Virus record (IMG/VR): IMGVR_UViG_3300035670_000058
Span: 50,681 to 114,680 of that record
DNA length: 64,000 bases
Strand: one strand, 5' to 3'
From: a virus
In this document: positions 13,971 to 49,520 of the stretch, piece by piece
Layout: each line of letters starts with the position of its first letter
How positions within the stretch are numbered: the first letter of the stretch is position 1
The notes under the pieces: generated by a model
Seen by the model: the letters and a program-made list of their open reading frames with translations, nothing else
What the model was told of the DNA's origin: nothing
Database searches by the model: none
Program-made: the position numbers and the translations under genes

Positions 13971-14567
13971 CTAAGCGGAGGCGACAACCTCTTCCTGCTC
14001 AGTATTCGAATACTGGGCAGAAAGGGCACGCTCGACAGCCTCCTTGAGTCGAGCCAGTTCAGACGCATTGACACCCACCAGAGCCGAAGCATCCAGTTCA
14101 GAAAGATTGTCCACGCGGAAAATCTTCTTGCGGGGGCCACGCTTCTTAGCGAGATTGTTATTCGACTTGAAATTCTGGACTGCATCCCGAACGTACTTAG
14201 GAGCGCGGGACGAACCCTCTTCCACAGAACCTCGGAAATACTGAACCATAAACTGAGTCATCTCTTTCGCATCAGCGAAAGGCTCAGGCTCTTCACCCTG
14301 CACCCAAAGGTACGTAGGGATCAGATCAAGCCGACGATTGCGATGCGAGATATCCTGAACGATTTGCTCAGCATCATACTTCGCATCGACCGTGAAATCA
14401 TTGACGATCACTCCATCAGTCGTGATCTCAAAGTTAGCACGGCCACCAAAGAGATGATAGATACCCTGCCATGCAGCGAGGACAGCGTTTCCTGCGCCAT
14501 TCTCAACGCCGACAGTAATGGGCTGAGTGCGAGTCTCAGCCTCAGGGGTTGCGTTAGCCTTAGCCAT
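13971..14567 (-). CDS. strongly promoted hypothetical protein with basic KKRGPRKK motif
   Basis: two upstream TTGACA promoters and a downstream terminator hairpin. Confidence 0.7.
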   Translation of the reverse strand: MAKANATPEAETRTQPITVGVENGAGNAVLAAWQGIYHLFGGRANFEITTDGVIVNDFTVDAKYDAEQIVQDISHRNRRLDLIPTYLWVQGEEPEPFADAKEMTQFMVQYFRGSVEEGSSRAPKYVRDAVQNFKSNNNLAKKRGPRKKIFRVDNLSELDASALVGVNASELARLKEAVERALSAQYSNTEQEEVVASA

Positions 14568-14643
14568 TGTATTTCGATCCTTTCGATTGGTGTAAGGCTA
14601 ACCAATCTCTCCATCTATATTCGGTTGTTAAGGTGCTGGGAGC

Positions 14644-14672
14644 ATTATCCATGCTTCCCTGAGTCTTGTCAA
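14644..14672 (-). promoter_or_regulatory. sigma-70-type promoter
   Basis: TTGACA-17-GATAAT; a second TTGACA promoter lies near 14750-14779. Confidence 0.7.
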
Positions 14673-15188
14673 GACCCTGCCGGTTGTCTAGCGATTTTCC
14701 GGCCCGTCTATTCTGGACTCCCGACCGCCGTTCCCGACCGCCTGTGAGCATCCTAGCGCTTCCCCGTCCCCTTGTCAACATCTTTTTTCAAAATAGGTTA
14801 TAGCTCAGATCATCAAAGTATCGATTTGTTCGATGATTACTTCAGGCATCATATACCGCTGGTTTACAAATCGAATTTCATCGGGGAGCCTGTTACTCAC
14901 CGGGTAAGAAAAGTATCTTACCACGTAAAAACCTAGCCATTTCCGCCGGCGCCCAATAGCTCGATTTTGCCAGGCAATATTCTAGCCTTTTTACGCGGTA
15001 AGATGACTCATTCTTGCGATTTGCAAAAAATCCAATTAAAACACTTGACAAACGCCGCCGGGTGTGCTACGCGCGGGGGCATTTATATAGGGGCGCGGGG
15101 CCGGAATTTTACGAGGCACATTCCTGGCCTTTTATCTAGCCTATTCTTGCGATTTTTACGCCTCCAACAAAATAGCCTATTTTACCCA

Positions 15189-25801: not shown

Positions 25802-27940
25802 TGATTCCGCACAGTCGGGAGACTTGATGATGGATAATTTGAAACTCTACCTAGTTGAGTATGAACCGTTTGTATTCATAGTTGCATACGAAACCTATTG
25901 GGCAGAGGATATTACTCATGCTAGAGAGCAATTTGCTAATGCCCATCCAGATGGGGTAAATGATGTGATCAGTATCTTTGAGTGTACGAAAGTTTGGGGC
26001 GAGGAAGATGACAACGCATCTTAGCGATTTCGATAAGTCTCATATTGGTGAGATTATTCATTATGACAATAGAGCCTATGAGTGGACCAGCGCACATATC
26101 ATCAGATTTATTGATCGTATGATCAGCAAGGGTGCATCTGATTATGAGATGGGTACACTCTATGCTCTGTGGCCCGAGTATTTTGATGCTGTACTTGATT
26201 GGTATGGCTGGCCTAAGAGCGAGCAGAAGATGATGATTGCTCGTTGGATTAGTGCGGTGGGATAAAAATGAACGTAACGCAGTTTGATCAGATTCCAGAA
26301 GCAGAAAAGGAATTGATTGCTTTCATCAGAAAGGTGTTGAATCTCTCTGATGATGTACGAATTACTGTTGAGTCATGGTCTGATCAGTTTGGTGGCTATA
26401 GGATTTCTGAGATTGATGTCTTTACACCTGATCCAGAAAGAGGACTTCCATTTGGATCAGGTGGAACCTATATGCAATCAGATTATGACGCTGGTGCTGT
26501 ACTCTTTGCAGCAGAGCGATTTGTAATCAGTCGTAATGACCCTATTGAAGAATGGGGACTAGATAGTTATATTGATTATCGTCAGGAAAGGGAACAGGCT
26601 TTAGCAGAAGCATTGGGGGCAGAAATTCCTGAGTGGGAAGATAGGAGATAACTAATGAAGCCTCTATATAAGACAACTATTATTATCTGGAGTCCCTTTG
26701 ATGGAGAGGAAGCAGAACTTACTGATCTAGCATTTCAAGCAACAGAAGGTAATAGTTATTGCTCTTCTCAGAAATCTATTCTGGTAGATGATCCAAGGGA
26801 TGATCCAGATTGGGATGGTACATCATTCTTTGATGATCCATACTGAGGATATAAATGGATACTCAAGATAAGTTCATGAAGACACTTGAAAAGGAACTTC
26901 CAGATCACTTGGAAATGGTTGTGAATAAGAGTTACCATAATGATGGAGTTATTTTTATCCAACCAGTTGAGTCCTTTGAATGTGTGCTTATGATTAGATT
27001 CAATTTCCAAACCAATTACTGCACATTTGAAATCTCTCCGGTAATCGCCGGCTCTTACCGTATTGAACAGAATTCAACTATGGTCTATGTACCTAGTCCA
27101 TTTGAGAAACTTGGACAACTTATTGAAGATATCAAGAAGTATCTTCTCTCATAAGGGAACCCCTAATCATGAATGATGTGACGCTCACTATTACAATCGA
27201 GCGATTGCTTGATCCTGATGCTGCTGATAGATTTCTAGAGTTGGAGGCAGAGAAGCAAGGTATCATTGATTCAGATCGATCAGCATATGAGATTGAGCAG
27301 GATATTGATGGGCTGCTCAGCGATTATCTTGATACTTCTGACTTCCATGATATTGTCAAATACGAACTCGATGCCGAATATTCGGGGGAATAAGGAATCT
27401 ATTTATGTCGTATAAAGGTATCGAGATTGAAGTGACGCCCGATGATATCGCTAAAGCACTTGATCCATCCCGCACATTTGATCCAGTGACTTATGCGATC
27501 ATCAGGACATACCCATATGTACCTGTCATTGATGTAGGCTCAGAGTATGTGGTAATCGGCAATGCAAAGTATTATACCAACGATGTGCTTTATGAGCATC
27601 TACTTGAGTGGGATAAGTACAAGGTATTCCACCCACATACATACAGACTAAAAAGGGCGCAAGATAATATGTAATATATACTATCTAGGTATATATACCA
27701 TGTTGTCTAGATGGAGTGAATCCCCAGATATCGGGGCCATTCTTATTGCGTGTCTAGTTGTGATCGGATTGATCCTCTTGATCCAAAGTGGGGGCAAGAA
27801 TGACAGATTATAGTTAAATATATACAAAATATATAGGAGATACCACAGATGTGATCTTGATAAGCTATTGCCAGGTATAAAAGAGGCGCAGGCTTACACT
27901 GTAAACCATATAAATATATAACAGAATAAGCACGAACGTT

Positions 27941-27981
27941 TGCCCTTATCTCGTATAATTACGGGATAAGGGCTTTTATTT
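27941..27981 (+). terminator. intrinsic terminator
   Basis: GCCCTTATCTCGT...ACGGGATAAGGGC followed by TTTT. Confidence 0.75.
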
Positions 27982-28414
27982 TGAATTACGCCGGCACCTC
28001 TGTTACATGGAGAGTTTTTTAATTATATTTATATCAGTATATATACGTAATTGACACCTTTTATTCCTAGGCAATTGCGCAGCCAATGGAGCGCAGCGTA
28101 TTTTAGAGGCGTATTGCCTTGGAATAATATATCCTTTTTTATATGGATTTAGCCAATAGACTACGAACACAGAGTAAGTCAGTATTATTTAGCCAATGGA
28201 GCGCGCCGCCTAATAGGTACGTATTATCCTGGAGAATATAGAATGAAATTGAATTAGAATTAAGCTCCGGTTACTGTTACGATATATACAATATATTTAT
28301 ATCTATTTGCCAGCTCTTGCAGCTTATCCCTTTACCACCTGGCCTTGCCTAGCTGATTGCGCATGCAATTGTCTGTCCCTATAAAATTCATTTGTTGCGA
28401 TTTGCAAATAATGC

Positions 28415-28443
28415 TTGACAAGCGCCGCGCGGTGTGCGACAAT
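28415..28443 (+). promoter_or_regulatory. sigma-70-type promoter
   Basis: TTGACA-17-GACAAT with TG extension. Confidence 0.7.
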
Positions 28444-28559
28444 CCTCTTGTACCCGAAAGGGAGCACCTTTACAAGAGAATAGAGAGGGCAAGGCGAAAG
28501 GTAGCCTAATTCTCCGTCCTGACTAACTAGCATTTATGCTAGAGAAAGGAGGTGAAAAT

Positions 28560-28856
28560 ATGGCAACGTATCATATCGCCAAGATGCGTGTCGTGCGGCC
28601 ATCCGAAAAGATGGCGGCAAAGCATCCCGACCGTTTCGCAACGGTTTTCGGTATCTTTGCTAATGAGCAGGGGCAGCGGCTTAGCATTACGTCTAAGGTA
28701 ATTACCATTGACGAGGCTAAGGATAGCGATACTACGATTGACATCGTGAATGGTATTCTTACTCTTCCCGATGGAAAGCGTGGTCGCACCGCTTCCGAAT
28801 CCATTTCGCAGGACGATATCGAAGCGGAACTCGCAGCGCTTCGCGGAGAGAATTAG
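28560..28856 (+). CDS. small protein, paralog family A (GKRGR motif)
   Basis: AAAGGAGG SD; clear similarity to 29320..29721. Confidence 0.8.
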   Translation: MATYHIAKMRVVRPSEKMAAKHPDRFATVFGIFANEQGQRLSITSKVITIDEAKDSDTTIDIVNGILTLPDGKRGRTASESISQDDIEAELAALRGEN

Positions 28857-29319
28857 TTACTAATTAGCCAAAACCCTCTCTATTCTCAGAAAGGATAAAC
28901 TAATACTGAATTAGTATTATAAAACGAATTGAATTTCGATGCCGGCCAGGTTCTTGAGCCAATGGAGCGTAGCGTATATCAGGTACGCCATATATATTTG
29001 AATTTGAATTATGTTCTTGTTCTTGTTATATATCCTGGATTATATTTGAATTTAAATTCTGTTCCTGTTTTATATTTTAGCCAATAGATTTCCATTCTCA
29101 TCTGGGGGGGGGTGAGCCAATAGAGGGGGGGGGATGAATGCCGGCCAAGCTCACCGACAATGTGAGAATAGAGCCTGTGGGCGACCAATACATTGGTCAG
29201 TATTGTCCACCTAGAAACACTTGACAGGGTATGCGCCTTGTGGCAGTATATGGGTGTCAGAGATGACAGGGACCCGAGAGGGACCCGAGAACCTTAACAA
29301 GTGAATAGCAGGGGATAGG

Positions 29320-29721
29320 GTGACAAGGCCCGACAAGGGCGAAAGGGAAACTCCCATTAGCGTCACCTACTTCGTGGATCGGATGCGCGTCATCCGGCCC
29401 ACAGGGAAGACCAAGGATCGGAACCCTGATCGGGTCTTCACCGTCAACGGCGTCTTCTACTCCACCGAGAGGGATGCCAAGGGCAACATCATCGTCAAGG
29501 ACAAGTTGTCCATCATCACCAAGAACGTGGACGTGGATGACGCCAAGTCCACCGAATTCGCCCTTGACGTGACGAACGGCTACCTGACGCTCCCTGAGGG
29601 GAAGCGTGGCCGGGTCGCACAGGCGGGGCTGGCAGAGGCGGATATCCTCGCGGAATTGGCCGCGCTGCGTGGCGAGGACACCGACGACACCGAAACCGAA
29701 ACCGAAACGGAAACCGACTAG
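29320..29721 (+). CDS. small protein, paralog family A (GKRGR motif, TE-repeat tail)
   Basis: MRVIRP, LSIITK and GYLTLPEGKRGR...AELAALRGE shared with 28560..28856; start uncertain. Confidence 0.8.
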   Translation: MTRPDKGERETPISVTYFVDRMRVIRPTGKTKDRNPDRVFTVNGVFYSTERDAKGNIIVKDKLSIITKNVDVDDAKSTEFALDVTNGYLTLPEGKRGRVAQAGLAEADILAELAALRGEDTDDTETETETETD

Positions 29722-30121
29722 GTATTAATTCACCCATCCCCTGCTATTCCTACCAATTTAATGAGAATGCCGGCGAGCTGCATATATATACAAATTAAGA
29801 ATTGAATAAGAAATCTTAACCTGTTTACTAAATAAGCCAATAGACTCCCGGCTCAATTGGAGGGGGGAAGCCAATGGAGGGGGGTGGCATAAAGGGACGC
29901 CCATACCTGGGATATATGCGCATATTCGAATTGAATTCGAATTGCCGTTCTGTTCCTGTTTTAGTGAATTGAATTAGCGCACCTGTTCGGTTACGTGCAA
30001 CGCGCACAGGGATACCTGGCCGAGCCGGCCAGTAGCTGCGCGTGCAACTACCCTGGATTCGACGCGCACGGCAAAGCCCTACCCGAAGGGGTAGGGCTTG
30101 CCTGTTGGGAAGGACTAGGGA

Positions 30122-30403
30122 CTAGTCGATCATCTCCTCGTAGGGCTTGTCGAAGAAGCCACCGGGGACCGACTCGTTGAGCCTGTCCCACAGGTTCCGC
30201 GCTTCCGCGTTCATGTCGCGGTCACGCATTTCCTGATGGATGAGGTAGAGGCCAAAGGTGACCTCATCGACGGTCGGGACGCCAAGGTCCACGCCCACCG
30301 ATTCCTGAAGGAGAGCCAAGGGGAACATGGTGTCGGTACCCTCGTAACCGAAATCCACCAGTGCCCCGTAATCGAGTCCCTTCAGGTACTCAATCGGGTC
30401 CAT
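30122..30403 (-). CDS. small acidic protein, paralog family B
   Basis: MDPIEYL...IHQEMRDRDMNAEARNLWDRLN; hairpin terminator downstream. Confidence 0.7.
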   Translation of the reverse strand: MDPIEYLKGLDYGALVDFGYEGTDTMFPLALLQESVGVDLGVPTVDEVTFGLYLIHQEMRDRDMNAEARNLWDRLNESVPGGFFDKPYEEMID

Positions 30404-30983
30404 TATTCGGTTATCCTTCCCTGTTGCCTTGGGTTCTTCCCTTCCCCTTGGGGTCGGTCCCTGCTGTTTCCGACATCCATAGATTAGCACGACCACCATA
30501 GGGATGAAGAGCTCAATGTCACAAGAATTCGTGACCAATGGCACTATGCAAGCGCCGGCAATTGTGCTACAATCCTCTGGGACAGCCCAGGGTGCGAAGC
30601 CAATAGAATGCGTCAGCAGACTGGGGCGTGAGCCAATGGAGCGCAGCGTGTATGTTGGGCGCATGGAATATACAGTAGATGAGTATTAGAATTGAACTGC
30701 GGTTCTGTTCCTGTACTGTAGAGGATTAGCCGTTCTGTTCTGTTAGGTATATGGTGTATAGCAAGGTGCCGGCTTCGCGCCATTTCACGCTATCCTGGAT
30801 GAATCTATACTGATTCGCTATGATATAGGCTCGATTTGTCCTGGTCTATTGAGCTATCCAAGCCGGCTCAAATCGCCCAATAATCGATTATTCTGGGCGC
30901 AAGAAACCCCTTGACAACATTCACCAGGTGCGCTAATCTACTGGTAGATCAAGAAACGCTCCTACAGGGAAGGGACACCAGAA

Positions 30984-31229
30984 ATGTTGGACGCAGCGAC
31001 ACTCATCGAGGACGGGTACGACCCGGACATGGCGGCGAAAGAATTGATGGAGGATGCACAATTCATCATCAGCGATCTGGCCGAGGATCTTCGCAGCCAG
31101 GATCGCAGACTACAGGATGCATTCTCTGGGCAGGAAATCCCCGAAATCGTCTGGGACGCGATCTGCGCCATCAAGGCGACGGTCAAACATCTCGATAGCG
31201 CGGAGGATGCACTGGTCCGATATATGTGA
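30984..31229 (+). CDS. small acidic helical protein
   Basis: own TTGACA promoter (30911) and terminator hairpin (31241-31277). Confidence 0.7.
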   Translation: MLDAATLIEDGYDPDMAAKELMEDAQFIISDLAEDLRSQDRRLQDAFSGQEIPEIVWDAICAIKATVKHLDSAEDALVRYM

Positions 31230-31626
31230 ATAACCGAATATATTAGTGCGGGGGTAATACATACTCCCGCACTAATACATAGCCCTGGAGTAATATATAA
31301 GTCCTGGGGTACTAGAATAGAATATAAATAAATCTTAACAATAAGAAATCTTAACCTGTTTAGTAAATTAGCCAATGGAACGCATGCATAAAAATGCACG
31401 CCGAGCCAATGGAGCGTATATATAATATTGGGCGGGTGTGTGTTTGAATACGAATTGAACATCCGTTCTGTTCCTGTTTGAATAGCACCTCGATTCCTGT
31501 TATGCGCATAAGCGCATAGCACGCGCATAGCGTGCGCCTAGGCGTGAGCTTGCCGGCCCTATGGGCCAGGCACTTGAGCATGGTGATAGGGGAGAGGCTT
31601 TCGCGCTCTCCCCTATCTGCTAGAGT

Positions 31627-31932
31627 CTAGTAGTTGACGGGCTTGGTGGACCGGACGAACGAGGCGTACTCGCTGTAGGTCTGGTCCTCAAGGATCGTGC
31701 CGTTCGGAGAAGCGGCGTTGATCCGGTTGAAGAGATCGACTGCATCCCCGTCCAGATCGCGCCACACCAGATGGGCGTGGATCATCTGGGAGAGAAGAGT
31801 GTCGGTGGAGATGGTGTAAGGATCGCCGCTCTTGACTGCCTCCGCGTAGAGGCTGGCCTCCTCCTGTGCAATCGCCACCAGAACGTGATCCGGCACGATG
31901 CTCAGGTAGACCATCATCTCTTCAGGCCCCAT
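31627..31932 (-). CDS. small protein, paralog family B
   Basis: IHAHLVWRDLDGDAVDLFNRIN...QTYSEY. Confidence 0.75.
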   Translation of the reverse strand: MGPEEMMVYLSIVPDHVLVAIAQEEASLYAEAVKSGDPYTISTDTLLSQMIHAHLVWRDLDGDAVDLFNRINAASPNGTILEDQTYSEYASFVRSTKPVNY

Positions 31933-32370
31933 CTATTCAGTTATCCTTTCCTACTGCTGGCCCCTCTGGCCCTGTCAGATCGTGTATCGATCTGATAGGT
32001 GTATCTTCGTCTATAGCGCTATCATGATATAGGTCCATATGGGGTAGATATTTGTGACCAATGGCACTTGACACACAGGGGATGATGTGCTAGCCGGCAA
32101 ATAGAACAGGCGTTCTAAAGCTGTGCGAGCCAATAGATTCAACATCCATTGAATGGCGCATGAGCCAATGGAGCGTGCCGCGTGTATGGGGCGCAGGAAT
32201 ATATACCAACTATGTATTAGAATCGAATATCGGTTCTGTTCCTGTCATAATGAATTAGCCTGATGTGTTGTTCTGTTATATCTCCTGAGGCCGGCTGTGC
32301 GCCTCTCCTGTGAGTCGCCTGGCCCTAGGGCAAAGAGAAAGGACCGGGTGTCCAGCCCGGTCCTTAGTCT

Positions 32371-32619
32371 CTAGCGGAAGTCGATATCCAGAATGGTCAG
32401 GCTTCCGTCGCTGATTTCCTTCTGTAGAGCATCGACTTCGATTTCGATGCGAGCGATCTTGGTATGGAGAGTATCGAGGATTTCCGCGAGAGCGATCTGC
32501 TCCTCGTTATCATCGGTGATTTCGGTGATCTGATCAGCGATCTGGTTGACCCACCAATTCGCGTCACCAATCTGCCCGATGACCTTCTCCAGCCCTTCGA
32601 TCAGAAGGTCTGTATTCAC
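32371..32619 (-). CDS. small acidic coiled-coil protein
   Basis: GTG start after AAGGA SD; hairpin terminator at 32340-32365. Confidence 0.7.
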   Translation of the reverse strand: MNTDLLIEGLEKVIGQIGDANWWVNQIADQITEITDDNEEQIALAEILDTLHTKIARIEIEVDALQKEISDGSLTILDIDFR

Positions 32620-33160
32620 TTGGGTCCTTCCTTCGCTACTGGCCTGGCCTGTCCTTATTGGGGACAAGCCCATTGTGCGCCTATTCCGCTGATATGTCAA
32701 TACCCTTTATGCAGTTGGTCACTATTGTCCACCTATTCTGTGAGCAGTACAAAGGTCCCAAAAGATGTGACATTTGGCCCTTGACAGGAGCCGGCAGATA
32801 TGCTAGCTCTACTTGCATACTTGCGCAAGCAGCTAAGTGACAAAAGTCACAAAAAAATGTGACAAATGGCACTTGACAAAGCCAATAGACTCCAGGCTCT
32901 ATCCTGGGCGCAAGCCAATGGACCTAGCCTTATATCTTGGACGCATGTATGAATATACTGATATACGCATATATGGATGAATTGAATTACGAATTCGGTT
33001 CTGTACATGTTCTGTTATATGGCCTGGCCTGTTAGGCTGTTCTGTTATAGAGATATAGCGCGATGAATTCCTGGCCGGCTGGTGAGCTTTCCCACGCGCA
33101 TGGGCCAGGCGATGGGCAAAGAGACAGGGCCGGGATCGCTCCCGGCCCTGTCGCCTCACC

Positions 33161-33466
33161 CTAGGCTGTAGGGTGGGCCGCTTCGAACGGCATTCCCCGT
33201 CCGATCCCCGTCCGATGGGCGTTAGCCGCATCGTAGAGGCGCTTAGCGATGCCACGGTGACGACGCCAGATCGCTTCGTCCACCAGCCGATCCACCAGCG
33301 CGGCAATCGTGCGAGGATCGATTTCCTCGCCCGTCACCAGCACCAGCGTGAGGCTACCGGACTCTTCGATCTGCTCCGCGAGGCTGCGAGCCATAGCGAA
33401 GATCGCGCCCGACGACTGCTCCCGCAGATCGAGTGCGATGGGATCGAACATTTGGCCTAGCACCAT
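33161..33466 (-). CDS. small protein, possible distant family B member
   Basis: AIWRRHRGIAKRLYDAAN; SD and terminator hairpin 33123-33152. Confidence 0.65.
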   Translation of the reverse strand: MVLGQMFDPIALDLREQSSGAIFAMARSLAEQIEESGSLTLVLVTGEEIDPRTIAALVDRLVDEAIWRRHRGIAKRLYDAANAHRTGIGRGMPFEAAHPTA

Positions 33467-33984
33467 CCTTTCCTATATCACCTTGGAACAAGGTGATTGT
33501 ACGCCTCGCGGCTAATAGATACCTAGGGCCAAAAGTCCCGAAAAAAAGTGACAAATGGCCCTTGACAAGCTATGCCGGCATATGTTAGGGGCCAGGTTAA
33601 GAAATCTTAGCTTGTTTAGTAAACTAAGCCAATGGAGCGTGTACTATAAATGGTACGCCCGTTCTATTTCCAGGGCTTGAGCCAATGGACCTAGCCTTAT
33701 TAGGGGGGCGCAGGAATATATCACTGATTGAATTAGAATTGAATTACGGTTCTGTTAGGATTACATACCAATCCAAGTTCTGTTATGCGCATGTATGTAT
33801 CCTGGGCACATATATCGCCGGCTGATATATTCCTGGCCTAGCAGTAGCTTGTTGCCGGCGCAACAGCTCATGCGGCATGAAGTATATATTGGTCACTATT
33901 GTCCACCCGAATTCTCTTGACACAGCCAGGTGCATCCGGTACGCTTAGCCTGCGTCCAGCGGCAAAGATAGTACGGGAGATGAC

Positions 33985-34338
33985 ATGGACCAGAACGGCG
34001 GCACTCAGGACTTCCTGAGCGAGATCGCGCACGCGACATGGATCGCGTGCAACCCTCAGACCACATCCCCTGCCGACGTCGAGGAATTGGGTATCCTCGC
34101 AATCCGCGATCTCAACGCAGCCATCGAGAATGGCGACTACATGATGGCGACCGTAGCCAACGCAATCGTGTCCACCGTCCATCGCGCAATGGTCTGCCGG
34201 GGAATGTTCCTCGACGCGACCGATCTCTTCTGCCGGGTCAACGCTACTGCCAAGAGCATCGGCATCGATGACATGCTCGACGGGCAGACCTACACCGAAT
34301 ACGTCGAGGCGATCCTCGACTGGTACGCTCAGGCGTAG
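33985..34338 (+). CDS. small protein, paralog family B
   Basis: VHRAMVCRGMFLDATDLFCRVN...QTYTEY; terminator hairpin 34352-34377. Confidence 0.75.
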   Translation: MDQNGGTQDFLSEIAHATWIACNPQTTSPADVEELGILAIRDLNAAIENGDYMMATVANAIVSTVHRAMVCRGMFLDATDLFCRVNATAKSIGIDDMLDGQTYTEYVEAILDWYAQA

Positions 34339-34923
34339 CGATCCACTAGGGTAGGGAGGCTAGCAATAGCCTCCCTATTCCTGTTGCCCTGGCCAGGGGC
34401 GCATATATATGCATGCATACTCATACAATGGGTATGCAATATTGCGTATAGACGCAATAGAACATCCGTTCTGTTTCGTTCTGAGCCAATGGAGCGTGCG
34501 CTGTTATAGGTGCGCCCATGTTCTGCGCATAGTGTACCGTTCTGTGTTCTGTTATATAGGGCCGGCTATACGATAGGTCCTGGGGTAAGCTTTACCTTGA
34601 GCTATATGGCCGGCTCTATATCTAATACCTGGGTATACCTTACATCTAGGTATAAGGTACACCTTATAACTTCAGGCCATCTTGGTGACATTTGGCCCAT
34701 TGACAGTGACCAATGGCATATAGTAGAGTACGGGCATGGTCATCTACTTCCACTCCACTAGCACAGGGGGCCACGCTATGGCACCGGATAGGCGCGATGC
34801 GCGCGTTGCAGCGCGGATCGCACAGGCGCAGGATCGCGCTGCGCGCGATGCTCGCAACACTGCGCGCGACAATGGCAAGTCAGAGTCAGATACGGCATAC
34901 GATTACAGGATGGGAGCGGCACA

Positions 34924-35313
34924 GTGAAGCGCAATCAGGCGCATCCCTGCTACGTCAACGGCAACACCCCTACGGGCATGGCGCATATGCCCATTGGCCG
35001 CTACGTGGAGTCAGTCCGCTACGGCGCATCCCTCACAATCGGCAACATCGTCCGTCGCAACGCTCTCCGCTACATGCTGGACGATGCCGCACAGGTCGCC
35101 GACACCGATACCACAATGGCGCTGCTAGATACAATCGAACACTACACTCCCAGTGTGCCGCGCTGCATGGGCACCGACACCGACTGCAACCACACACAGT
35201 CGGTGCACGACTGGGATGGATGCTTGCACGATACGTGCGAGTGCACCCTGCGATACGGTCGCGGTGTCAATCGACTCAATGAGATGATCATGGCAGAGGG
35301 ATACATGATCTGA
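34924..35313 (+). CDS. hypothetical protein with C-terminal Cys/His cluster
   Basis: CNHTQSVH...C...CEC; terminator hairpin 35334-35364. Confidence 0.6.
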   Translation: MKRNQAHPCYVNGNTPTGMAHMPIGRYVESVRYGASLTIGNIVRRNALRYMLDDAAQVADTDTTMALLDTIEHYTPSVPRCMGTDTDCNHTQSVHDWDGCLHDTCECTLRYGRGVNRLNEMIMAEGYMI

Positions 35314-35467
35314 CTTTCACAACTCAAATTCACAATTAGGGCCGGTTATACGCCGGCCCTAATTCATATTACCCAGGTTGCGTGATTGCGCAAGTACGCA
35401 AGACCCCCCCCTATATTCGCATCGAATTAGTGCACATTCAACGCCGTCGAGCTCTGTTACTGTACAT

Positions 35468-35616
35468 AAATCCGAGGTCAACTTTTTGAAACTTTTTAGA
35501 ATACGTCTGCCTTCATTCTGAAGGTACTATACAAAAATACGAGGTCAATTTTTTCCAGTTTTTTAGAAGACCTCTAGAGTAAAAAAATGGGAGCAAAAAT
35601 TTCACAGTTTTTTAGA
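35468..35616 (+). repeat. three degenerate ~33-bp direct repeats with T-tracts
   Basis: AAAT[C/A]CGAGGTCAA...TTTTTAGA at 35468 and 35535; weaker copy at 35585. Confidence 0.7.
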
Positions 35617-35649
35617 TAACTCTCGTCATAGTATACGGTAAAATTGGGC

Positions 35650-36325
35650 ATAAAAAAGTAAAGCCCCCAAGGAGCAAACGACTTCGGGGGGAAAGTCATT
35701 CGATCAACTTGGAGGCTTTACTTTGATCTGAACAACAGCCGAAATTAATTTTCAGATCAAAGCAAGGATCAGCGCCGCATACGTGGCGGCATCTATTCAG
35801 TTAGGTTCTGCGCCCTATCAGTACATTTGGGCGCAGAGTCTGGTTGCTTTACAACAAAGGATTTTTTGCTGTATTACTACGTGAATTTGAGTGTTCCTTG
35901 GCAACCTTTCTGTCAATGGAGAGTCTAGACTTCCTGACAGTGCCGCTGGGGTCGCTTTCACGTATACTGACCAGAACTATCCAACAACCACATTGGGGTA
36001 CAATATAGTTGTTATATAGCCGAAGGTTTTGATTGACCTATCAGATGCATTCAGTCAATCAATCAGATGCATGATACGCAGATAAGGGGCCGTGAGACAC
36101 CCTCTGTGTATGATGCAGAGAACGAGATTTCCAAATCATTCTCTTACGTCTGTCTGATATCAGCAGAGAGTTTGCCAGAAGGAGTCCTGATCTTTTGAGG
36201 GACCAGAGGTTTCTGGTTGTCTCCCCCGCTGCTGATGTATGTACTGTACCGTGCCCCAGACGACCCGTCAAGTTGCGGTTCGGTTACAACTCGGGGGCAA
36301 AGGCTCTATTTTTGGGAGCCGAGGG
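35650..36325 (+). ncRNA. candidate large structured non-coding RNA
   Basis: no credible ORF; more than ten stem-loops, most G-U wobbles favouring the + strand. Confidence 0.45.
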
Positions 36326-36338
36326 ATAAAAACTCACC

Positions 36339-36367
36339 TTGACAACCAATTGCCAATCGGCTATGCT
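36339..36367 (+). promoter_or_regulatory. sigma-70-type promoter
   Basis: TTGACA-17-TATGCT. Confidence 0.6.
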
Positions 36368-36477
36368 AGTAGGTACAGAGAGGGGAGTATTTTATCGCCT
36401 GAAATCTGGTCGATTTTTTCGACAGTTAATGTGGCTTGTCCGCAGTAGAATTGCGGTAGTAACCATTTCGGCGTCCT

Positions 36478-36717
36478 TTGTTCGAACAGTTGTTCTTGAA
36501 TTCCTTTCAGGGAGGAATTGTTTCGTTGGACCCAGATTATGAAGCCTACCGATTGTGCGGCAAGTGTGGGAATATGAAACCTCAGACAGAGGAATATTTC
36601 TACATCATGCGCCCAAGAGGGCCGCACAAGAGCATCGGTTGGCAATCGTATTGCCGCGAGTGCTGGAAAGACATCAATGCGGCGAATAAACTTCGCAGGA
36701 AGTTGGCGTGCAAGTGA
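36478..36717 (+). CDS. zinc-finger protein
   Basis: CGKCG..KP...YF...CREC. Confidence 0.6.
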   Translation: MFEQLFLNSFQGGIVSLDPDYEAYRLCGKCGNMKPQTEEYFYIMRPRGPHKSIGWQSYCRECWKDINAANKLRRKLACK

Positions 36718-36919
36718 CCTACATCAACACTGATTGCTGGTGCTATGGTGTCGGTTGCGAGTGGTGTTTCTGTGGATGGGATGAGCAATGACGTTTGTGA
36801 AGTGTTCTGTTCCTGTTGGCGCTAGGCCGGTGTTCCATTTCTGCAATCGCAGGAATGAACTCGCCTCTTGTCTGCACTGCAAGAAGGTTTTCTGCAAGCA
36901 GCACATGAGCAGACATCGC

Positions 36920-44834: not shown

Positions 44835-44923
44835 GGAGAGATGGCTGAGTGGTTTAAAGCGGCGTCCTGCTAAGACGTTGTGCGTAACAGCACCGCTGGG
44901 TTCGAATCCCGCTCTCTCCTCCA
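44835..44923 (+). tRNA. tRNA-Ser(GCT)
   Basis: GGAGAGA/TCTCTCC stem, long variable arm, loop CTGCTAA, CCA. Confidence 0.9.
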
Positions 44924-44961
44924 GCCCAAAATCTATATTTGGGAGTGGTTAATATATTCAC

Positions 44962-45053
44962 GGAGAGTTGCCAGAGTCCGGTTTAATGGAACTGTCTTGA
45001 AAACAGTCGCACCTAAGACGTGCCGATGGGTTCGAATCCCTCACTCTCCTCCA
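44962..45053 (+). tRNA. tRNA-Ser(TGA)
   Basis: GGAGAGT/ACTCTCC stem, loop CTTGAAA, long variable arm, CCA. Confidence 0.9.
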
Positions 45054-45067
45054 TTTTAGGGGAAATA

Positions 45068-45307
45068 ATGAGCAGTAGACTAATTAGTGAAGATGAACAG
45101 TATCTTATATTAGAGCGCTACATACATGATGATACTGATGAGTTCTCTTACTGGGAATTAGATAAAGAGGCTAACCCAAAATATTCTCAAGTAGTCCAAG
45201 ATGCTGAGCATTATGTGGCATATGAATTAAAAATCAAGTATCGAATTGATAAAAAAACGGGGGAAGTTTTGTATTTAGAGTTTGATGGCATGGGACTTCC
45301 TACTTAA
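45068..45307 (+). CDS. hypothetical protein
   Basis: ATG at 45068 after the tRNA. Confidence 0.55.
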   Translation: MSSRLISEDEQYLILERYIHDDTDEFSYWELDKEANPKYSQVVQDAEHYVAYELKIKYRIDKKTGEVLYLEFDGMGLPT

Positions 45308-45309
45308 AT

Positions 45310-45383
45310 GGGGATGTCGTTCAAAGGTAGGACGACTGCTTTGCAAGCAGTAGATCGGGGTTCAATTCCCCGCTTCTCCACCA
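45310..45383 (+). tRNA. tRNA-Ala(TGC)
   Basis: G3:U70 pair, loop TTTGCAA, CCA. Confidence 0.9.
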
Positions 45384-45390
45384 AAGGTGA

Positions 45391-45594
45391 GTGATGAAGA
45401 TTGAGTTTATTGACAGGGATGAGTATATTCGGAGAACCAAATACTGGATTTTTAGCACTTCTTACTATTGCCCTGTTTGTAGTAGCACTACTACTTATAG
45501 AGAAAGATTCTTAGAATCTGAGCATCCACGCCCCAAAGATTGGAGCGATAGGAACAAGGATATAGAATCGTATGATTACTGTGATGCACTTTAA
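45391..45594 (+). CDS. hypothetical protein
   Basis: CPVC motif. Confidence 0.5.
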   Translation: MMKIEFIDRDEYIRRTKYWIFSTSYYCPVCSSTTTYRERFLESEHPRPKDWSDRNKDIESYDYCDAL

Positions 45595-45631
45595 TCATCT
45601 GGGTTGAACCTAGTATGGAGGACATGTTATA

Positions 45632-45787
45632 GTGGGAAGACCGAGAAAGGTTAAGGAAGAGTCAACGACAGAATCGGGGCGATGGGTATCCCCAACCAAA
45701 CGAGATGATATCCCTCCCGGCTATCCTAGGCCCGTTCCTAAGCCTTCGAAGAAAGGCCGCAAAGGTAAGGAAGAAACTGAGGAATAA
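45632..45787 (+). CDS. small basic protein (MGRPRK...)
   Basis: 51-aa ORF below the track cutoff; GGAGG SD, GTG start. Confidence 0.4.
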   Translation: MGRPRKVKEESTTESGRWVSPTKRDDIPPGYPRPVPKPSKKGRKGKEETEE

Positions 45788-45855
45788 CGTTCTAATCACA
45801 TGAACAGTACAAAAGTGTACCGTTCAAGTAAACAGATACTGTAAAGGAGAAGGAA

Positions 45856-47418
45856 ATGGCTAGATTGAATTACACGCGAAAGGCTGTTACCTCGCAGCGA
45901 CTCGCGGAAGAGACTACGACCAACTATGAAGGTGCTGTGGCGTTCAAGTTGACAGACCACCAGCAACTGATTGAACAGGTCTTAGGTGCGTTTTGGAACG
46001 AGAATCTGTTCTACACCAAGGGCAAGGATCAGACCGACTCTATTGTCGGATTGATCAAGTCCGTGGCGACAGTCGATCCAAAGTTTCCATTGCAGTTAGC
46101 AGCATATGCTAGAAACGTTCTCTATATGCGCACAACTCCACAGGTATTGCTTGTGGAGGCTTCGCGGATCGCTGCGTGCAAACCATTTGTGGTTGAGTAC
46201 ACGCCTAAGATTGTGAAGCGGGCGGATGAATTGGCCGAAGTTGTTGCGTATTACAGCGCACACTATGGTACTGATCCGAAAAAGCCGGGAAAGACACACG
46301 TCAATTTCCCTAACTCACTAAAGAAGGGACTTGCCAAAGCATTTACCAACTTTGATGAGTATCAACTGAACAAGTATGACTCTTCCAAGTCATCTGTCAC
46401 TCTGGGTCAGGTTGCACAACTTGTGCATCCTCCTATTGGCAAGGCACTCTATGAGTATCTTACCAAGGGTGTTGTTGATCCTGAGGCTATGCCAAAGACA
46501 GCCGCTCTCAAGGCTCTCTTGGCAAAGGATAAGATTGATGACGAGGCTTTGGAGTTAATTGCAAAGAGTGGAATCACTTGGGAGTCAATGATTTCCAAGT
46601 TTGGTTCTACCAAGGAAACTTGGGAGTTGGTTGCACCGAATATGGGCTACATGGCCCTATTGCGAAACCTACGAAACTTTGAGCAGAAGGGTGTTGATCT
46701 TGATCCAATCTTGAAGCGTATTGCTGATGAGAATGAGGTCAAGAGAAGCAAGCAGTTGCCGTTCCGGTTCTACTCTGCGTACCGTGAGGTTACTGAGCAG
46801 AAGATTCAGAGAGCAATTGCTCAGGCGCTTGAGAAGTCAATCTCCAACGTTCGACTTGACGGTCGGACTGCGGTTATGGTAGACTTGTCTGCGAGCATGA
46901 ATTCTCCGCTATCTGCACATTCAAAGGTATCATATCGGGATATCGCGTGCGTTCTTGGTGCAGTTGTTGTCAAGAAGTCTAGCAACTCAATTGCTATTGG
47001 CTTCGGGGACAGTGCCAAGACTGCTCGTATCAATCCTGATGATACGATGATGACAAACATGGAGAAAATCCAGAATCTGAATGTTGGTCACTCAACCAAT
47101 GCCTATCTGGCATTTGATGAGTTGGGCAGCAAAGAAGTTGATCGGGTAATTCTCATCTCCGATATGCAGTGCTATACTACAAATTGGGGCTGGGGGCTGT
47201 CTAGCGATAGCACTGTAAAGGATCGCTGGGCTAGATACGTCAAAATGTATCCGAATGCAAAGTTGTACTCGCTAGACGTTAGTGCCTACGGTACAGCACA
47301 GACACCATCTGATGCGAAGAACACCGTTCTTCTCAACGGTTGGTCAGACAAGATCATCGATCTCATCAATGTCTATGACAAGCGTGATGCGATGGTCGAA
47401 GAGATTCGTAAGTTTTAA
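45856..47418 (+). CDS. TROVE-domain Ro60/Rsr RNA-binding protein with C-terminal vWA
   Basis: NYEGAVAF, YAR...MRT, RADE, FDEYQLNKY, TWE, MALLRNLRN, SKQLPFRF, DLSASM MIDAS, ISDMQ, GWSD. Confidence 0.92.
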   Translation: MARLNYTRKAVTSQRLAEETTTNYEGAVAFKLTDHQQLIEQVLGAFWNENLFYTKGKDQTDSIVGLIKSVATVDPKFPLQLAAYARNVLYMRTTPQVLLVEASRIAACKPFVVEYTPKIVKRADELAEVVAYYSAHYGTDPKKPGKTHVNFPNSLKKGLAKAFTNFDEYQLNKYDSSKSSVTLGQVAQLVHPPIGKALYEYLTKGVVDPEAMPKTAALKALLAKDKIDDEALELIAKSGITWESMISKFGSTKETWELVAPNMGYMALLRNLRNFEQKGVDLDPILKRIADENEVKRSKQLPFRFYSAYREVTEQKIQRAIAQALEKSISNVRLDGRTAVMVDLSASMNSPLSAHSKVSYRDIACVLGAVVVKKSSNSIAIGFGDSAKTARINPDDTMMTNMEKIQNLNVGHSTNAYLAFDELGSKEVDRVILISDMQCYTTNWGWGLSSDSTVKDRWARYVKMYPNAKLYSLDVSAYGTAQTPSDAKNTVLLNGWSDKIIDLINVYDKRDAMVEEIRKF

Positions 47419-47420
47419 TA

Positions 47421-47496
47421 GATTAGGTAGTGTAAGCGACGGTTACTTCTTCCTGCAACTAAGACCCGTTCCGTTGCTGCTTTTAATCTCCTAATC
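47421..47496 (+). ncRNA. Y-RNA-like element 1 (minimal; anticodon-like hairpin cargo)
   Basis: GATTAGG/CCTAATC stem, TAGTGT/TAATCT internal loop, TACTTC. Confidence 0.65.
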
Positions 47497-47500
47497 ATAT

Positions 47501-47573
47501 GGCCCCATCGTCTAATGGCTTAGGATATGACTCTTTCAAGGTAATGATCGGAGTTCGATTCTCCGTGGGGCTA
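47501..47573 (+). tRNA. tRNA-Glu(TTC), no encoded CCA
   Basis: GGCCCCA/TGGGGCT, loop CTTTCAA, GTTCGATTC. Confidence 0.8.
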
Positions 47574-47593
47574 CAGTTTTTATTTGGAGATTT

Positions 47594-47893
47594 ATGGAAT
47601 GGAAAGAGCATTATGCTCTATATAAAGAAGGTTATCTAGAACGAAATAAAAAGAAGCGAGAAGCATCTAATCGCCTAATTAGGGAAGCAAAAAATAAGCC
47701 CTGCGCCGATTGCGGGGTAAAGTATCCCTACTATGTTATGGATTTAGATCATATTGAGGGGCAAAAGACGGGAACTCTCGCTCATATGAAATCGTACTCT
47801 GAGAAAAGAGTACAAGAAGAAATAAATAAATGCGAGGCAGTTTGCTCAAACTGTCATCGAATACGAACATTTAATCGTAATAGCGTAGTGTGA
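47594..47893 (+). CDS. HNH endonuclease
   Basis: PCADCG...MDLDH...KCEAVCSNCHRIRT. Confidence 0.85.
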   Translation: MEWKEHYALYKEGYLERNKKKREASNRLIREAKNKPCADCGVKYPYYVMDLDHIEGQKTGTLAHMKSYSEKRVQEEINKCEAVCSNCHRIRTFNRNSVV

Positions 47894-48050
47894 GAATCGG
47901 GTACTTCTACACCTTTGTTTTGTTTTGAACACACAACTCACCAGCATGGATATGTCAGCACGGGAGGATGGCCCTTGTGACTCTTAGGAAAGGACTAAGT
48001 GACGAATCGGAAGTAAGACGATAAAGCCCCCGATCCAGTTAATCTCGCTA
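47881..48050 (+). ncRNA. Y-RNA-like element 2 (non-tRNA cargo of about 120 nt)
   Basis: TAGCG/CGCTA stem, TAGTGT/TAATCT, ATCGGG/CCCGAT, TACTTC. Confidence 0.6.
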
Positions 48051-48064
48051 GATATTAGATATTA

Positions 48065-48204
48065 TATAGGATAGTGTAGGATACAGTTACTTCGCTTGGG
48101 ACGACAAGACGGAGGTTCGAATCCTTCTTCCCCAACCAAATCGATGGGGAATGGTGCAATGGCAGCACATGTAAAATTTCTGTGCCCGTTCTAATCTTCC
48201 TATA
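48065..48204 (+). ncRNA. Y-RNA-like element 3 (YrlA-like; permuted tRNA-Pro cargo)
   Basis: TATAGGA/TCCTATA stem, TAGTGT/TAATCT, TACTTC, T-arm and CCA preceding the D-arm. Confidence 0.75.
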
Positions 48205-48228
48205 ACTGTTAATATATATGGATAGTCA

Positions 48229-48433
48229 TCGCTTATCCGGTAGTAACCATTACATAATGCAGTAAATATATAAGTAGACATTACCGACTTCACCACCGGC
48301 CCTCTACTTTGACATAGAGGAATTGGTTATTCTCCTGCTTGGTTACTACCGGATGCGCGACGGCGCAGAGTCCGTAATGCTGATGAATTGATGTTCCGCG
48401 ATAGCGTCCGGTAAATCTAAATTGAGGTAAGCG
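48229..48433 (+). ncRNA. unclassified structured RNA candidate
   Basis: perfect 15-bp stem 48235-48249/48340-48354 and inner hairpins. Confidence 0.45.
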
Positions 48434-48441
48434 GTAGTTTT

Positions 48442-48574
48442 TAAGTGTAGTGTCTCGTAACGGCTACTTCGTAAATCAATGGATAGATTATTGTACTCTT
48501 AATACAACTGTTGTCGGTTCGAATCCGACCGAATATCGCCGCAAGGCTAACCCGTTACAAACTAATCTCACTTA
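48442..48574 (+). ncRNA. Y-RNA-like element 4 (tRNA-Lys(CTT)-like cargo lacking a full acceptor end)
   Basis: TAAGTG/CACTTA stem, TAGTGT/TAATCT, GTAACGG/CCGTTAC, D, anticodon and T arms in normal order. Confidence 0.7.
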
Positions 48575-48579
48575 TCTAT

Positions 48580-48656
48580 TCCCGGTTGGTGTAATTGGTA
48601 AGCATTCTTGTCTGTTAAACAAGCGGCTGAAGGTTCGAATCCTTCACCGGGAGCCA
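48580..48656 (+). tRNA. tRNA-Asn(GTT)
   Basis: TCCCGGT/ACCGGGA, loop CTGTTAA, CCA. Confidence 0.9.
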
Positions 48657-48673
48657 GCACAGAAGGTGGGCGC

Positions 48674-48862
48674 ATGGCAAACTTTAAGAGGAAGCGAACC
48701 AAGCATATCACAGAAAGTCAGTGCGGACGTAAGCATTGCAAGTATGATCTAGTCCACACTCCTACCGAGAATGGCCGGAACAGATATCTTCCAATGTACT
48801 GGAAGAAACTAGGGGGCCACAGACCTTGGAGATACATACATAAGAATGTAGACAATCTTTGA
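48674..48862 (+). CDS. small basic protein
   Basis: MANFKRKR...C....C. Confidence 0.5.
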   Translation: MANFKRKRTKHITESQCGRKHCKYDLVHTPTENGRNRYLPMYWKKLGGHRPWRYIHKNVDNL

Positions 48863-48933
48863 CCCTTCGTCTAACGGTAGGACCACTGACTTTGGATCAG
48901 TTAGTCGGGGTTCGAATCCCTGAGGGTCAGCCA
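48860..48933 (+). tRNA. tRNA-Gln(TTG)
   Basis: TGACCCT/AGGGTCA, loop CTTTGGA, CCA. Confidence 0.9.
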
Positions 48934-48947
48934 ACTTAGGAGATATT

Positions 48948-49520
48948 ATGACAGATGATTTAGAGTCTAGGTGGACTCCGGCAAGAGATTGGTGCCCCCA
49001 TCCTGAATACTGGCACTCTCCCGACTCTGAGGCTACAGAAGTAGAAGTCTCAGAGTTTATTGGTTCTCTGGTAAGAATGATCCAACCAGATTTTGTACTG
49101 GAGACAGGAACCTACATGGGTCATACGACCCTAGAGATTGCTCGCGCTCTTTACATGAATGGACACGGTAGGGGAATCTCGCTAGAGGCTGATGGGAATT
49201 TAGCCGCAGAAGCACAGAGAAGACTTCAGAATTTCATGGGTTCTAATAACACTGTGCAAGTATTAAATATGAACTCAATGGAGTATAATCCCATTGAAAA
49301 TATTGATTTTGCCTTCTTTGATTCATGGCAGGAAGGGCGTATCCTAGAATTTGAGAAGTTTTACAATGCTGGGTGGTTAAAGAAGGGCGCAATTGTCGCC
49401 TTCCATGATACGGCTCCGCACCATCAGGTGCGCAAGTCCATTGTTGAAGGTGGGCATGATTATTTTACTATTATTGATTTCCATACTCCTAGAGGACTGG
49501 TTTTAGGGCAAGTAAAATGA
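48948..49520 (+). CDS. class I SAM-dependent O-methyltransferase (Methyltransf_24-like)
   Basis: VLETGTYMG, IDFAFFDS, GAIVAFHD. Confidence 0.85.
   Translation: MTDDLESRWTPARDWCPHPEYWHSPDSEATEVEVSEFIGSLVRMIQPDFVLETGTYMGHTTLEIARALYMNGHGRGISLEADGNLAAEAQRRLQNFMGSNNTVQVLNMNSMEYNPIENIDFAFFDSWQEGRILEFEKFYNAGWLKKGAIVAFHDTAPHHQVRKSIVEGGHDYFTIIDFHTPRGLVLGQVK

Follow-up and report, generated by a model that had tools for sequence, protein, structure and literature searches.

Integrons encode an IntI-type tyrosine recombinase next to a row of gene cassettes that are mostly promoterless and are driven by a common Pc promoter; their attC sites, imperfect inverted repeats of 57-141 bp at the cassette ends, are recombined at a fixed point. 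Cluster A mycobacteriophages carry stoperators, short asymmetric sites that occur genome-wide in many same-orientation intergenic copies and follow the direction of transcription. In T4-type phages, promoter-early stem-loops (PeSLs) are composite repeats found in hyperplastic regions, where they mediate indels and replacements and where mini-circles have been shown for them (Arbiol et al. 2010, PMC2839356; Comeau et al. 2014, PMC4122927). The first-step-transfer (pre-early) DNA of T5, a large tRNA-rich siphophage, contains repeat regions with boxes in pairs, including the injection stop signal (Davison 2020, bioRxiv 10.1101/866236). Here we describe an array of small genes alternating with repeated non-coding modules in a 64,000-nucleotide stretch of DNA (the window), which corresponds to bases 50,681-114,680 of the 114,680-bp IMG/VR virus record IMGVR_UViG_3300035670_000058. 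The locus is probably a hyperplastic array of immediate-early ORFans, in which the modules provide portable homology for the gain, loss and exchange of units, PeSL-like in action and not an integron.

Each unit of the array measures about 760 bp and consists of one cassette plus a 200-290-bp non-coding module of fixed polarity that is rich in hairpins and palindromes. The hallmark of the module is one to three copies of the asymmetric 10-mer AGCCAATRGA (the box). The window contains 20 exact matches to it, 19 of which are on the plus strand within 28081-34493, where shuffled sequence is expected to give 0.35 (maximum 2). The only copy outside the array in the whole 114,680-bp genome is on the minus strand at window position 55281, making the box near-unique to the array genome-wide (19 copies there against one elsewhere). 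The first boxes lie at 29079, 29835, 30598, 31370, 32128, 32880 and 33627, with spacings of 756, 763, 772, 758, 752 and 747 bp; boxes are paired 33-40 bp apart (53 bp in one pair), and looser units are found at 28151/28957 and 34484. These box positions and spacings had been given by a first-pass annotation of the window and were exactly reproduced. The same annotation had held that the spacing stays nearly constant whatever the gene length. This is true of the source genome, where the box period stays within 25 bp though the gene products vary from 81 to 133 amino acids (aa), and does not extend to the relatives described below, whose box intervals are looser at 725-990 bp. One relative, L109, has intervals of 800 and 801 bp and is phased similarly to the source genome. 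The tight 747-773-bp phasing is a property of the source genome, not of the clade. The first-pass annotation had also suggested a length-constrained structural array near a probable genome end, serving DNA ejection, packaging or protection; relatives do not share the tight phasing. Among 98 distinct box copies from about 20 genomes, A1 and A10, the positions not forced by the search pattern, are 98% conserved. The box flanks carry compositional signals only: T-rich at -2/-1, G/C-rich at +11-13 and A/T-rich at +21-25, followed by G27, C30 and G31.

The modules are all oriented in the same direction as the two leading genes of the array, which belong to one protein family (family I), whereas the cassette genes face either way (g1+, g2+, g3-, g4+, g5-, g6-, g7-, g8+, g9a/b+). 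These orientations, as first annotated, match independent gene calls. Each cassette gene comes with a promoter of its own and can therefore lie in either direction.

Scanning IMG/VR for the pattern of paired boxes returned 89 loci; 88 proved to be coding or tandem repeats, leaving one true relative (L087). An alignment-based search of IMG/VR gave the same genome, here called G001, as the sole relative. It is 120,336 bp long and syntenic with the source genome at about 70% nucleotide identity, and its array has four cassettes, all on the plus strand, between the same flanks. Nothing was found when g1 was used as a single protein to search for relatives. An alignment-based scan of metagenome contigs with family I recovered 21 loci; AGCCAATRGA is present in 20 of them, and within these arrays the boxes run in the same direction as the family I gene. 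The phage and its relatives are a previously undescribed clade of tRNA-rich siphophages of about 115-120 kb.

The number of cassettes ranges from 3 to at least 9 across the relatives, and the differences between close relatives are whole units, each of about 790-980 bp. Compared with L111, L109 has one extra unit of 800 bp; L108 in turn has two more than L109 (about 975 and 835 bp), and L112 lacks a unit of 786 bp. The flanks and the last cassette are common to the window and L122, as are g1, g2 and an orthologue of g5 that is likewise inverted (49% identity); g3, g4, g6 and g7 are extra in the window. All three junctions that could be mapped are within modules, at three different positions. 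In L112, the module resembles the first module of L109 (M1) through the box and the second (M2) after it; the L109/L108 junction is 70-130 nt downstream of box 2, and the L111/L109 junction is about 40 nt upstream of the box. The turnover of cassette content and number that the first-pass annotation had envisaged among related phages is therefore observed, as whole-unit changes with junctions in modules.

The contigs that bear homologues are mostly 1-5 kb long and many end in or near a module; these phages assemble poorly because of the repeats. In sequencing runs X1 and X2, a separate contig (6,329 bp in X2) shares with the source genome only a 28-nt module piece with the AAGAAATCTTAAC palindrome (31340-31367) and then diverges. 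A second clade member therefore co-occurs with the phage, which gives an opportunity for inter-genome exchange at the modules. Two joints in Logan contigs were considered as products of excision or inversion and rejected: one is a 25-28-nt module piece shared with a co-occurring relative, and the other is weak, with one side of 21 nt. Among the public sequencing runs listed as containing the locus, none is from RNA.

Under the reading that we favour, the modules would act as direct-repeat homology blocks at which homologous recombination, either unequal or between genomes, removes, duplicates and exchanges cassettes. Their direct orientation would be retained because only direct repeats yield viable gains and losses of units, and because the module presumably also carries polar cis-signals. 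The box and the palindromes TTAAGAAATCTTAA and TAGAAC-N4-GTTCTG are the most likely candidate sites for lineage-specific or host DNA-binding proteins, which, once bound, would insulate neighbouring cassettes and time their expression. The G+C content of the cargo genes (58%, against 44.6% for the phage) would fit translation by the host tRNA pool before the phage's many tRNAs are made, and is consistent with a role in host takeover or anti-defence.

The array resembles PeSLs in several respects. In both systems short, conserved, stem-loop-rich non-coding repeats lie between small non-essential ORFan early genes clustered in a variable region; indels and replacements between related phages end in the repeats, here as whole units with junctions inside modules; and the cargo has strong sigma-70-type early promoters. 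However, a PeSL is a promoter plus terminator stem-loop directly upstream of a gene, whereas here both belong to the cassette, and the repeat stands apart as a multi-motif module of 200-290 bp that contains an invariant 10-mer and lacks a consistent sigma-70 promoter. The modules keep one polarity whichever way the genes face, units are near-periodic, and the phage is not T4-like. Since the repeat lacks the defining promoter-terminator composite, we do not regard the array as a member of the PeSL family.

Several observations weigh against recombination between homologous modules as the whole explanation. The 747-773-bp period, held over six units despite genes of 81-133 aa, is much tighter than simple cassette swapping predicts, and no test that was run accounts for it. 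The 10-bp box is invariant across genomes whose genes have diverged to about 45-70% protein identity; such invariance means more than a homology block, and no protein is known to bind the box. Recombination at modules alone leaves unexplained how cassettes come to be inverted amid plus-oriented operator and -35 elements. No recombination intermediates, inversions or circles were seen in the assembled Logan contigs (runs X1-X4), the only form in which these data were used. RecT, ERF and RecA were not detected in the genome with Pfam, and the exchange would therefore need host functions or an unrecognised protein.

Read 5' to 3', a module often begins with the palindrome AAGAAATCTTAAC, followed by box 1, a short hairpin or palindrome, box 2 and a GC-clamped AT-rich hairpin. 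Next come GGAATATA, then GAATT repeats and GTTCTGTTCC repeats pairing with each other about a core of GAAC-N4-GTTC, and then GTTCTGTTAT; in the source phage and its closest relatives the module ends with GCCGGC. The order of downstream motifs listed by the first-pass annotation (GSGC, GGAATATA, GAATTGAATT, CGGTTCTGTTCCTGT, GTTCTGTTAT, GCCGGC) was recovered as the consensus of the module alignment together with its repeat families. In a genome-wide check, the module and operator motifs are restricted to the array, save for the single outside copy of the box. The modules have a G+C content of 45% overall and of 36% in M1. GCCGGC is concentrated in the 7.5-kb array (27990-35357), which holds 18 of the 34 sites in the genome where about 5 are expected from G+C content; almost all of these are in non-coding DNA at module/cassette borders. 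The hexamer is present in the closest relatives L105, L110 and L122, and none was seen in the G001 array as read. Exact GAAC-N4-GTTC palindromes occur at 30694, 31457, 32104 and 34460, and also at 36484, and extend to TAGAAC-N4-GTTCTG. Four of the six distinct genomic copies are within modules, and the palindrome is kept in the modules of most relatives (27 distinct copies). GAAC-N4-GTTC has the form of the LexA (Cheo) box of Gram-positive bacteria, which is a lead only.

The cassette genes encode products of 81-133 aa with isoelectric points (pI) of 4.1-5.8, except for the small basic g9a (pI 9.7). The genes have a G+C content of 58%, whereas the modules are at 45% and the genome is at 44.6%. 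A sigma-70-type promoter belonging to the cassette itself is present in at least seven of the nine, for example TTGACA-17-GACAAT, TTGACA-17-TAATCT, TTGACA-18-TAGAGT and, on the minus strand, TTGACA-17-CACAAT; those of g5 and g7, identified by visual inspection, are weaker. Further features of most cassettes are a strong Shine-Dalgarno site, operator palindromes close to the promoter and, at the 3' end, a hairpin or terminator. The promoters are flanked by array-specific operator-like elements, namely GTCAC-N7-GTGAC / GTGACNNNTGGC, and TGGTCANTATTGTCCAC. Complementarity between the 5' and 3' untranslated regions (UTRs) is seen for g1, g2 and g5; in g1, a 14-nt segment of the 5' UTR is exactly complementary to a segment just past the stop codon, placing the whole open reading frame (ORF) inside a stalk. 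Leader words resembling the boxA of rRNA operons, CCTTTACAA / CCTTAACAA, are found at 28467, 29292 and 14625 (minus strand), in regions 28443-28880, 29250-29760 and 13875-14778 (minus strand), and the word is kept in the family I genes of relatives. Past every minus-strand cassette, in the window and also in L122, a plus-oriented operator and TTGACA face the next module, and TTGGTCACTATTGTCCACC keeps its plus orientation even beside the minus-strand gene g6. Because these elements stay fixed, the inverted part is the gene with its core promoter, not the surrounding framework.

None of the cargo genes matched a Pfam or PHROG family. Two families can be recognized among them: family I comprises the paralogues g1 and g2 (44% identity), and family II comprises g3, g5 and g8, with members on both strands. 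Public metagenomes contain 79 homologues of family I and 10 of family II, mostly on short contigs and none with a Pfam domain; the cargo therefore belongs to the phage clade, with no visible capture from bacteria. Family I almost always occurs as two tandem paralogues heading the array, in G001 (L100:4462-5647, minus strand) and in most relatives, one of about 97 aa and the other of about 125-135 aa with an acidic repeat tail, both sharing an invariant G-K/E-R-G-R loop; L112 and L117 have one copy only. The AlphaFold model of family I (pLDDT 82) has a beta-rich core, a disordered GKRGR loop and a C-terminal helix. Foldseek returned nothing for it with E <= 0.001, the best VIA-align Z was 3.5, and searches of a PDB sequence profile and the ESM Atlas gave nothing. 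An RbpA-like identity appeared repeatedly in low-probability rows that we do not trust. Family II is modelled as a helical bundle (pLDDT 89); a MazG-like assignment was rejected, as its rows are weak, with a probability well short of even, and the acidic motif of MazG is not conserved in the family. Neither model thus matches a solved fold convincingly.

Other readings of the array differ in what they take the module to be. The first-pass annotation had offered an integron-like cassette array, and a row of single-gene cassettes with fixed-polarity sites, varying in number and content between relatives, does resemble one. A dedicated site-specific recombinase would in that case capture, excise and invert cassettes at the box or at the palindromic GCCGGC, which would suit sites of fixed polarity between genes of either orientation, the 18 of 34 GCCGGC sites that lie in the array at module/cassette borders, the L112 junction falling exactly at the box, and the many phage ORFs of no known family. 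However, the whole 114.7-kb genome has no Pfam match to a tyrosine recombinase (PF00589, found in all 14 control genomes), a serine recombinase (PF00239) or a Y1 transposase. The cassettes have their own promoters and four genes are on the opposite strand; the spacers are 200-290-bp modules with direct-repeat boxes and not attC-type hairpins, and the cassettes are not flanked by a conserved pair of inverted repeats (as judged without an attC-specific model). The inverted genes lack flanking inverted-repeat crossover sites, junctions fall at three module positions and not at a fixed one, GCCGGC is absent from the G001 array as read, and no excision or inversion joints are seen in contigs. The integron-like proposal is thus not sustained and we consider such a platform very unlikely; the varied junction sites, together with the lack of a detectable tyrosine or serine recombinase or Y1 transposase, favour homologous exchange over integron-like capture. 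It is also improbable, though less so, that a strand-specific enzyme of the phage, so far unrecognised and perhaps a nickase or a novel kind of recombinase, targets the box with its adjacent hairpin and initiates cassette exchange and inversion. If this were the case, the array would be an integrase-free platform of lytic phages for gene capture and shuffling, with its unit length of about 760 bp set by the mechanism. That the modules are ordinary promoters or terminator-promoter composites of their neighbours, and the array a row of similar transcription units, is hardly credible. The AT-rich modules do give scattered sigma-70-like hits on both strands, including TTCAAT-17-TATATT (minus strand) in five modules and TTGGCT-16-TAAGAT, with the box as -35, in a few, but the near-consensus cassette promoters are separate, lying either 175-300 bp downstream from the box or on the opposite strand, and module polarity is independent of gene polarity. 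Taken as a plus-strand -35, the box has a plus-strand -10 at promoter distance in 1 of 59 modules; taken as a minus-strand -35 (TTGGCT), it has a minus-strand -10 at 16-18 nt in 15 of 96 boxes. The AT-rich patch after the box fails as a -10 hexamer, A being about equal to T at each position, and searches for a sigma factor or a T7-type RNA polymerase of the phage were negative. The earlier statement that the module is not simply the promoter of the adjacent gene agrees with these results, there being no sigma-70-like -10 consistently at the right distance from the box on either strand and at least seven of nine cassettes with promoters of their own.

The module might alternatively function as a rightward-transcribed RNA, as a processing, antitermination or small-RNA element like the early RNase III sites of T7 or nut/put sites. 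Transcription would come by read-through from plus cassettes or from the plus promoter-like elements past minus cassettes, and would be antisense on the latter. The plus operator and TTGACA past every minus cassette in the window and L122, the boxA-like CCTT(T/A)ACAA in cassette leaders and the 5'/3' stalks around ORFs speak for such transcripts, although the plus promoter-like elements have poor -10 hexamers. Whole modules fold better than shuffles, with plus-strand z values of -0.8 to -4.1, but minus-strand folds also beat shuffles and the difference between strands is not significant (p = 0.08) after control for base composition. Pairing between the GAATT and the GTTCTGTTCC repeats involves G-U pairs found on the plus strand only, yet this G-U excess derives mainly from one conserved position. 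Hairpins after the box change in sequence and retain their pairing, and the segments after the box outfold shuffles with a mean z of -1.0; a hairpin specific to that position was nevertheless rejected, since all other module offsets also outfold shuffles, and the propensity is raised module-wide with no defined element. A search of 27500-36500 against Rfam 15 identified no family, the best hits scoring 19-25 bits against gathering thresholds of 45-80. We consider an RNA function of this kind unlikely. Somewhat more plausible, if still a minority view, is that the module is foremost a polar DNA signal, with the box as the site of a strand- or orientation-specific enzyme or binding protein, the phasing functional and the turnover a by-product. 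Candidates include a nicking or HNH endonuclease as in the nicked genomes of T5-type phages, a Chi-like stop for a host exonuclease that enters from a nearby genome end, a stoperator-like roadblock and an ejection-stop site. The 10-mer is invariant, asymmetric, confined to one strand regardless of the local gene and often paired at 33-40 bp; the GC-clamped AT-rich segment beside it would melt easily; the source genome is tightly phased; the phage encodes several HNH and LAGLIDADG endonucleases; and one mapped junction lies exactly on the box. On the other side, relatives have a period of 725-990 bp, the other two mapped junctions are off the box, and no enzyme or binding protein has been identified for it. 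Stoperators offer a partial parallel only, since the boxes are confined to one 7-kb array, ignore local gene direction and have no known repressor. T5-like genomes have strand-specific nicks (PMC10644984), and in T5 the variable pre-early ORFs are interspersed with conserved, untranslated repeat regions that contain host-protein boxes in pairs (bioRxiv 10.1101/866236). T5 has three such regions, whereas the present array is periodic with one module per gene; the T5 boxes are host DnaA boxes inside conserved inverted repeats, whereas none of the 8 TTWTNCACA sites in the window falls in a module; and the T5 repeat regions are in a long direct terminal repeat at the end that enters the cell first, whereas the source assembly closes on itself, a circular closure that does not place the physical genome ends. 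T5 dmp, A1 and A2 had no match among the window ORFs scanned against Pfam and PHROGs, a scan not aimed at these three genes.

Phage genes for host takeover and anti-defence usually take the form of small acidic early ORFans whose promoters are strong and tightly operated, and nine such cassettes within 7.5 kb, variable among relatives, are a natural place to seek new anti-defence functions. Modular shuffling mediated by repeats has so far been documented in T4-type myoviruses. A locus of the favoured kind would extend it to an unrelated clade of uncultured siphophages from subsurface and sediment samples, with a repeat that is much longer, polar and separate from promoters.

The assembly of the source genome is circularly closed, its two ends overlapping, and the array is located at 78.6-86.1 kb of the record. 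The window encodes a ribonucleotide reductase, a DnaG-type primase, a family A DNA polymerase, a clamp loader, a Ro60-like protein, 11 tRNAs, methyltransferases and homing endonucleases; the endonucleases of the phage include several of the HNH and LAGLIDADG types. The PolA protein has at most about 31% identity to any phage in the list of phage records, and the array DNA had no megablast match among 50,697 phage records. Pfam searches of 30 other window ORFs revealed no regulator, recombinase or polymerase attributable to the array. To the left, the array is flanked by a plus-strand block ending in a strong terminator, and the adjoining segment 28001-28075 is kept in G001; to the right it is followed by a non-coding stretch and then a minus-strand block. 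The features of the array are listed in the table.

Table. Coordinates of the array features in the window
Feature	Position	Strand	Description
Intrinsic terminator, strong	27942..27973	+	14-bp stem and T-run; closes upstream + operon; left edge of array region
Module M1	28081..28300	+	boxes 28081, 28151, 28191, then GAATATA / GAATTGAATT / GGTTACTGTTA part
Cassette 1	28415..28856	+	promoter TTGACA-17-GACAAT 28415-28443; boxA-like CCTTTACAA 28467; strong Shine-Dalgarno
g1	28560-28856	+	98 aa, family I; 14-nt 5'/3' UTR complement around ORF
Module M2	28941..29145	+	double module; boxes 28957, 29079, 29115; GCCGGC at 28941 and 29140
Cassette 2	29221..29721	+	promoter TTGACA-17-CAGTAT behind TTGGTCAGTATTGTCCACC; g2 29320-29721, 133 aa, family I
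Module M3	29769..30029	+	palindrome AAGAAATCTTAAC at 29808; boxes 29835, 29869; GCCGGC at both ends
Cassette 3, inverted	30074..30522	-	terminator hairpin 30074-30099; promoter GTGACA-16-TATGGT 30522-30495
g3	30122-30403	-	93 aa, family II, pI 4.1
Before M4 boxes		+	operator GTGACCAATGGCAC and promoter-like TATGCA-17-TACAAT, spanning GCCGGC at 30554
Module M4	30554..30773	+	boxes 30598, 30631; GAAC-N4-GTTC at 30694
Cassette 4	30911..31280	+	promoter TTGACA-17-TAATCT 30911; g4 30984-31229, 81 aa, pI 4.1; 3' hairpin 31238-31280
Module M5	31325..31557	+	palindrome 31343; boxes 31370, 31404; GAAC-N4-GTTC 31457; GCCGGC 31552
Cassette 5, inverted	31585..32074	-	terminator hairpin 31585-31617; g5 31627-31932, 101 aa, family II
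Cassette 5, further elements	31555-31569 with 31957-31971; 32054-32074		UTR complement (first pair); + operator and TTGACA facing M6 (32054-32074)
Module M6	32093..32295	+	GAAC-N4-GTTC 32104; boxes 32128, 32163; GCCGGC at both ends
Cassette 6, inverted	32339..32700	-	terminator 32365-32339; g6 32371-32619, 82 aa, pI 4.1; promoter TTGACA-17-CACAAT 32700-32672
Operator block and module M7	32715..33079	+	boxes 32880, 32913; GCCGGC 32790, 33074
M7 operator block, fixed orientation		+	TTGGTCACTATTGTCCACC at 32715; GTGAC..TGGC and TTGACA at 32767 and 32859
Cassette 7, inverted	33114..33567	-	terminator hairpin 33114-33161; g7 33161-33466, 101 aa; + operator and TTGACA 33548-33567 facing M8
Module M8	33574..33835	+	palindrome 33599; boxes 33627, 33680
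M8 perfect 13-nt inverted repeat	33711-33723 with 33823-33835		encloses GAATT/GTTCTGTT part
Cassette 8	33890..34377	+	TGGTCACTATTGTCCAC element; promoter TTGACA-17-TACGCT 33917; terminator hairpin 34352-34377
g8	33985-34338	+	117 aa, family II
Module M9, short terminal	34440..34566	+	GAAC-N4-GTTC 34460; single box 34484; GCCGGC 34561
Cassette 9	34685..35365	+	operators 34685, 34706; promoter TTGACA-18-TAGAGT 34700; closing hairpin 35337-35365 around GCCGGC 35352
g9a/g9b	34778-34927; 34924-35313	+	translationally coupled; g9a 49 aa, basic; g9b 129 aa

The right flank (35400-36900) is about 1.5 kb without a convincing ORF. It starts with a C-run and then TATATTC (around 35400), which is conserved in G001, and contains two 51-nt direct repeats (35458-35508 and 35525-35575) that are 80% identical and carry TACTGTACA-like words. 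Near the left end of the window, two ORFs (2187-2843 and 3358-4104) both show a match to the N-terminal portion of a C-5 cytosine DNA methylase and are followed by a LAGLIDADG endonuclease ORF (4109-4531). The region 2187-4531 may, to judge by these matches, be a split or duplicated methylase with a homing endonuclease, and one could speculate that the methylase ORFs (2187-4104) are linked to the GCCGGC sites. The Ro60/TROVE-like RNA-binding protein (phrog_850, E = 1e-55) is encoded at 45856-47418, amid 10 scattered tRNA genes (44835-53739). Finally, a 1630-aa ORF with no PHROG match (57930-62822) includes a stretch of about 1 kb (58001-59000) with a G+C content of 62%, far above the genome mean.

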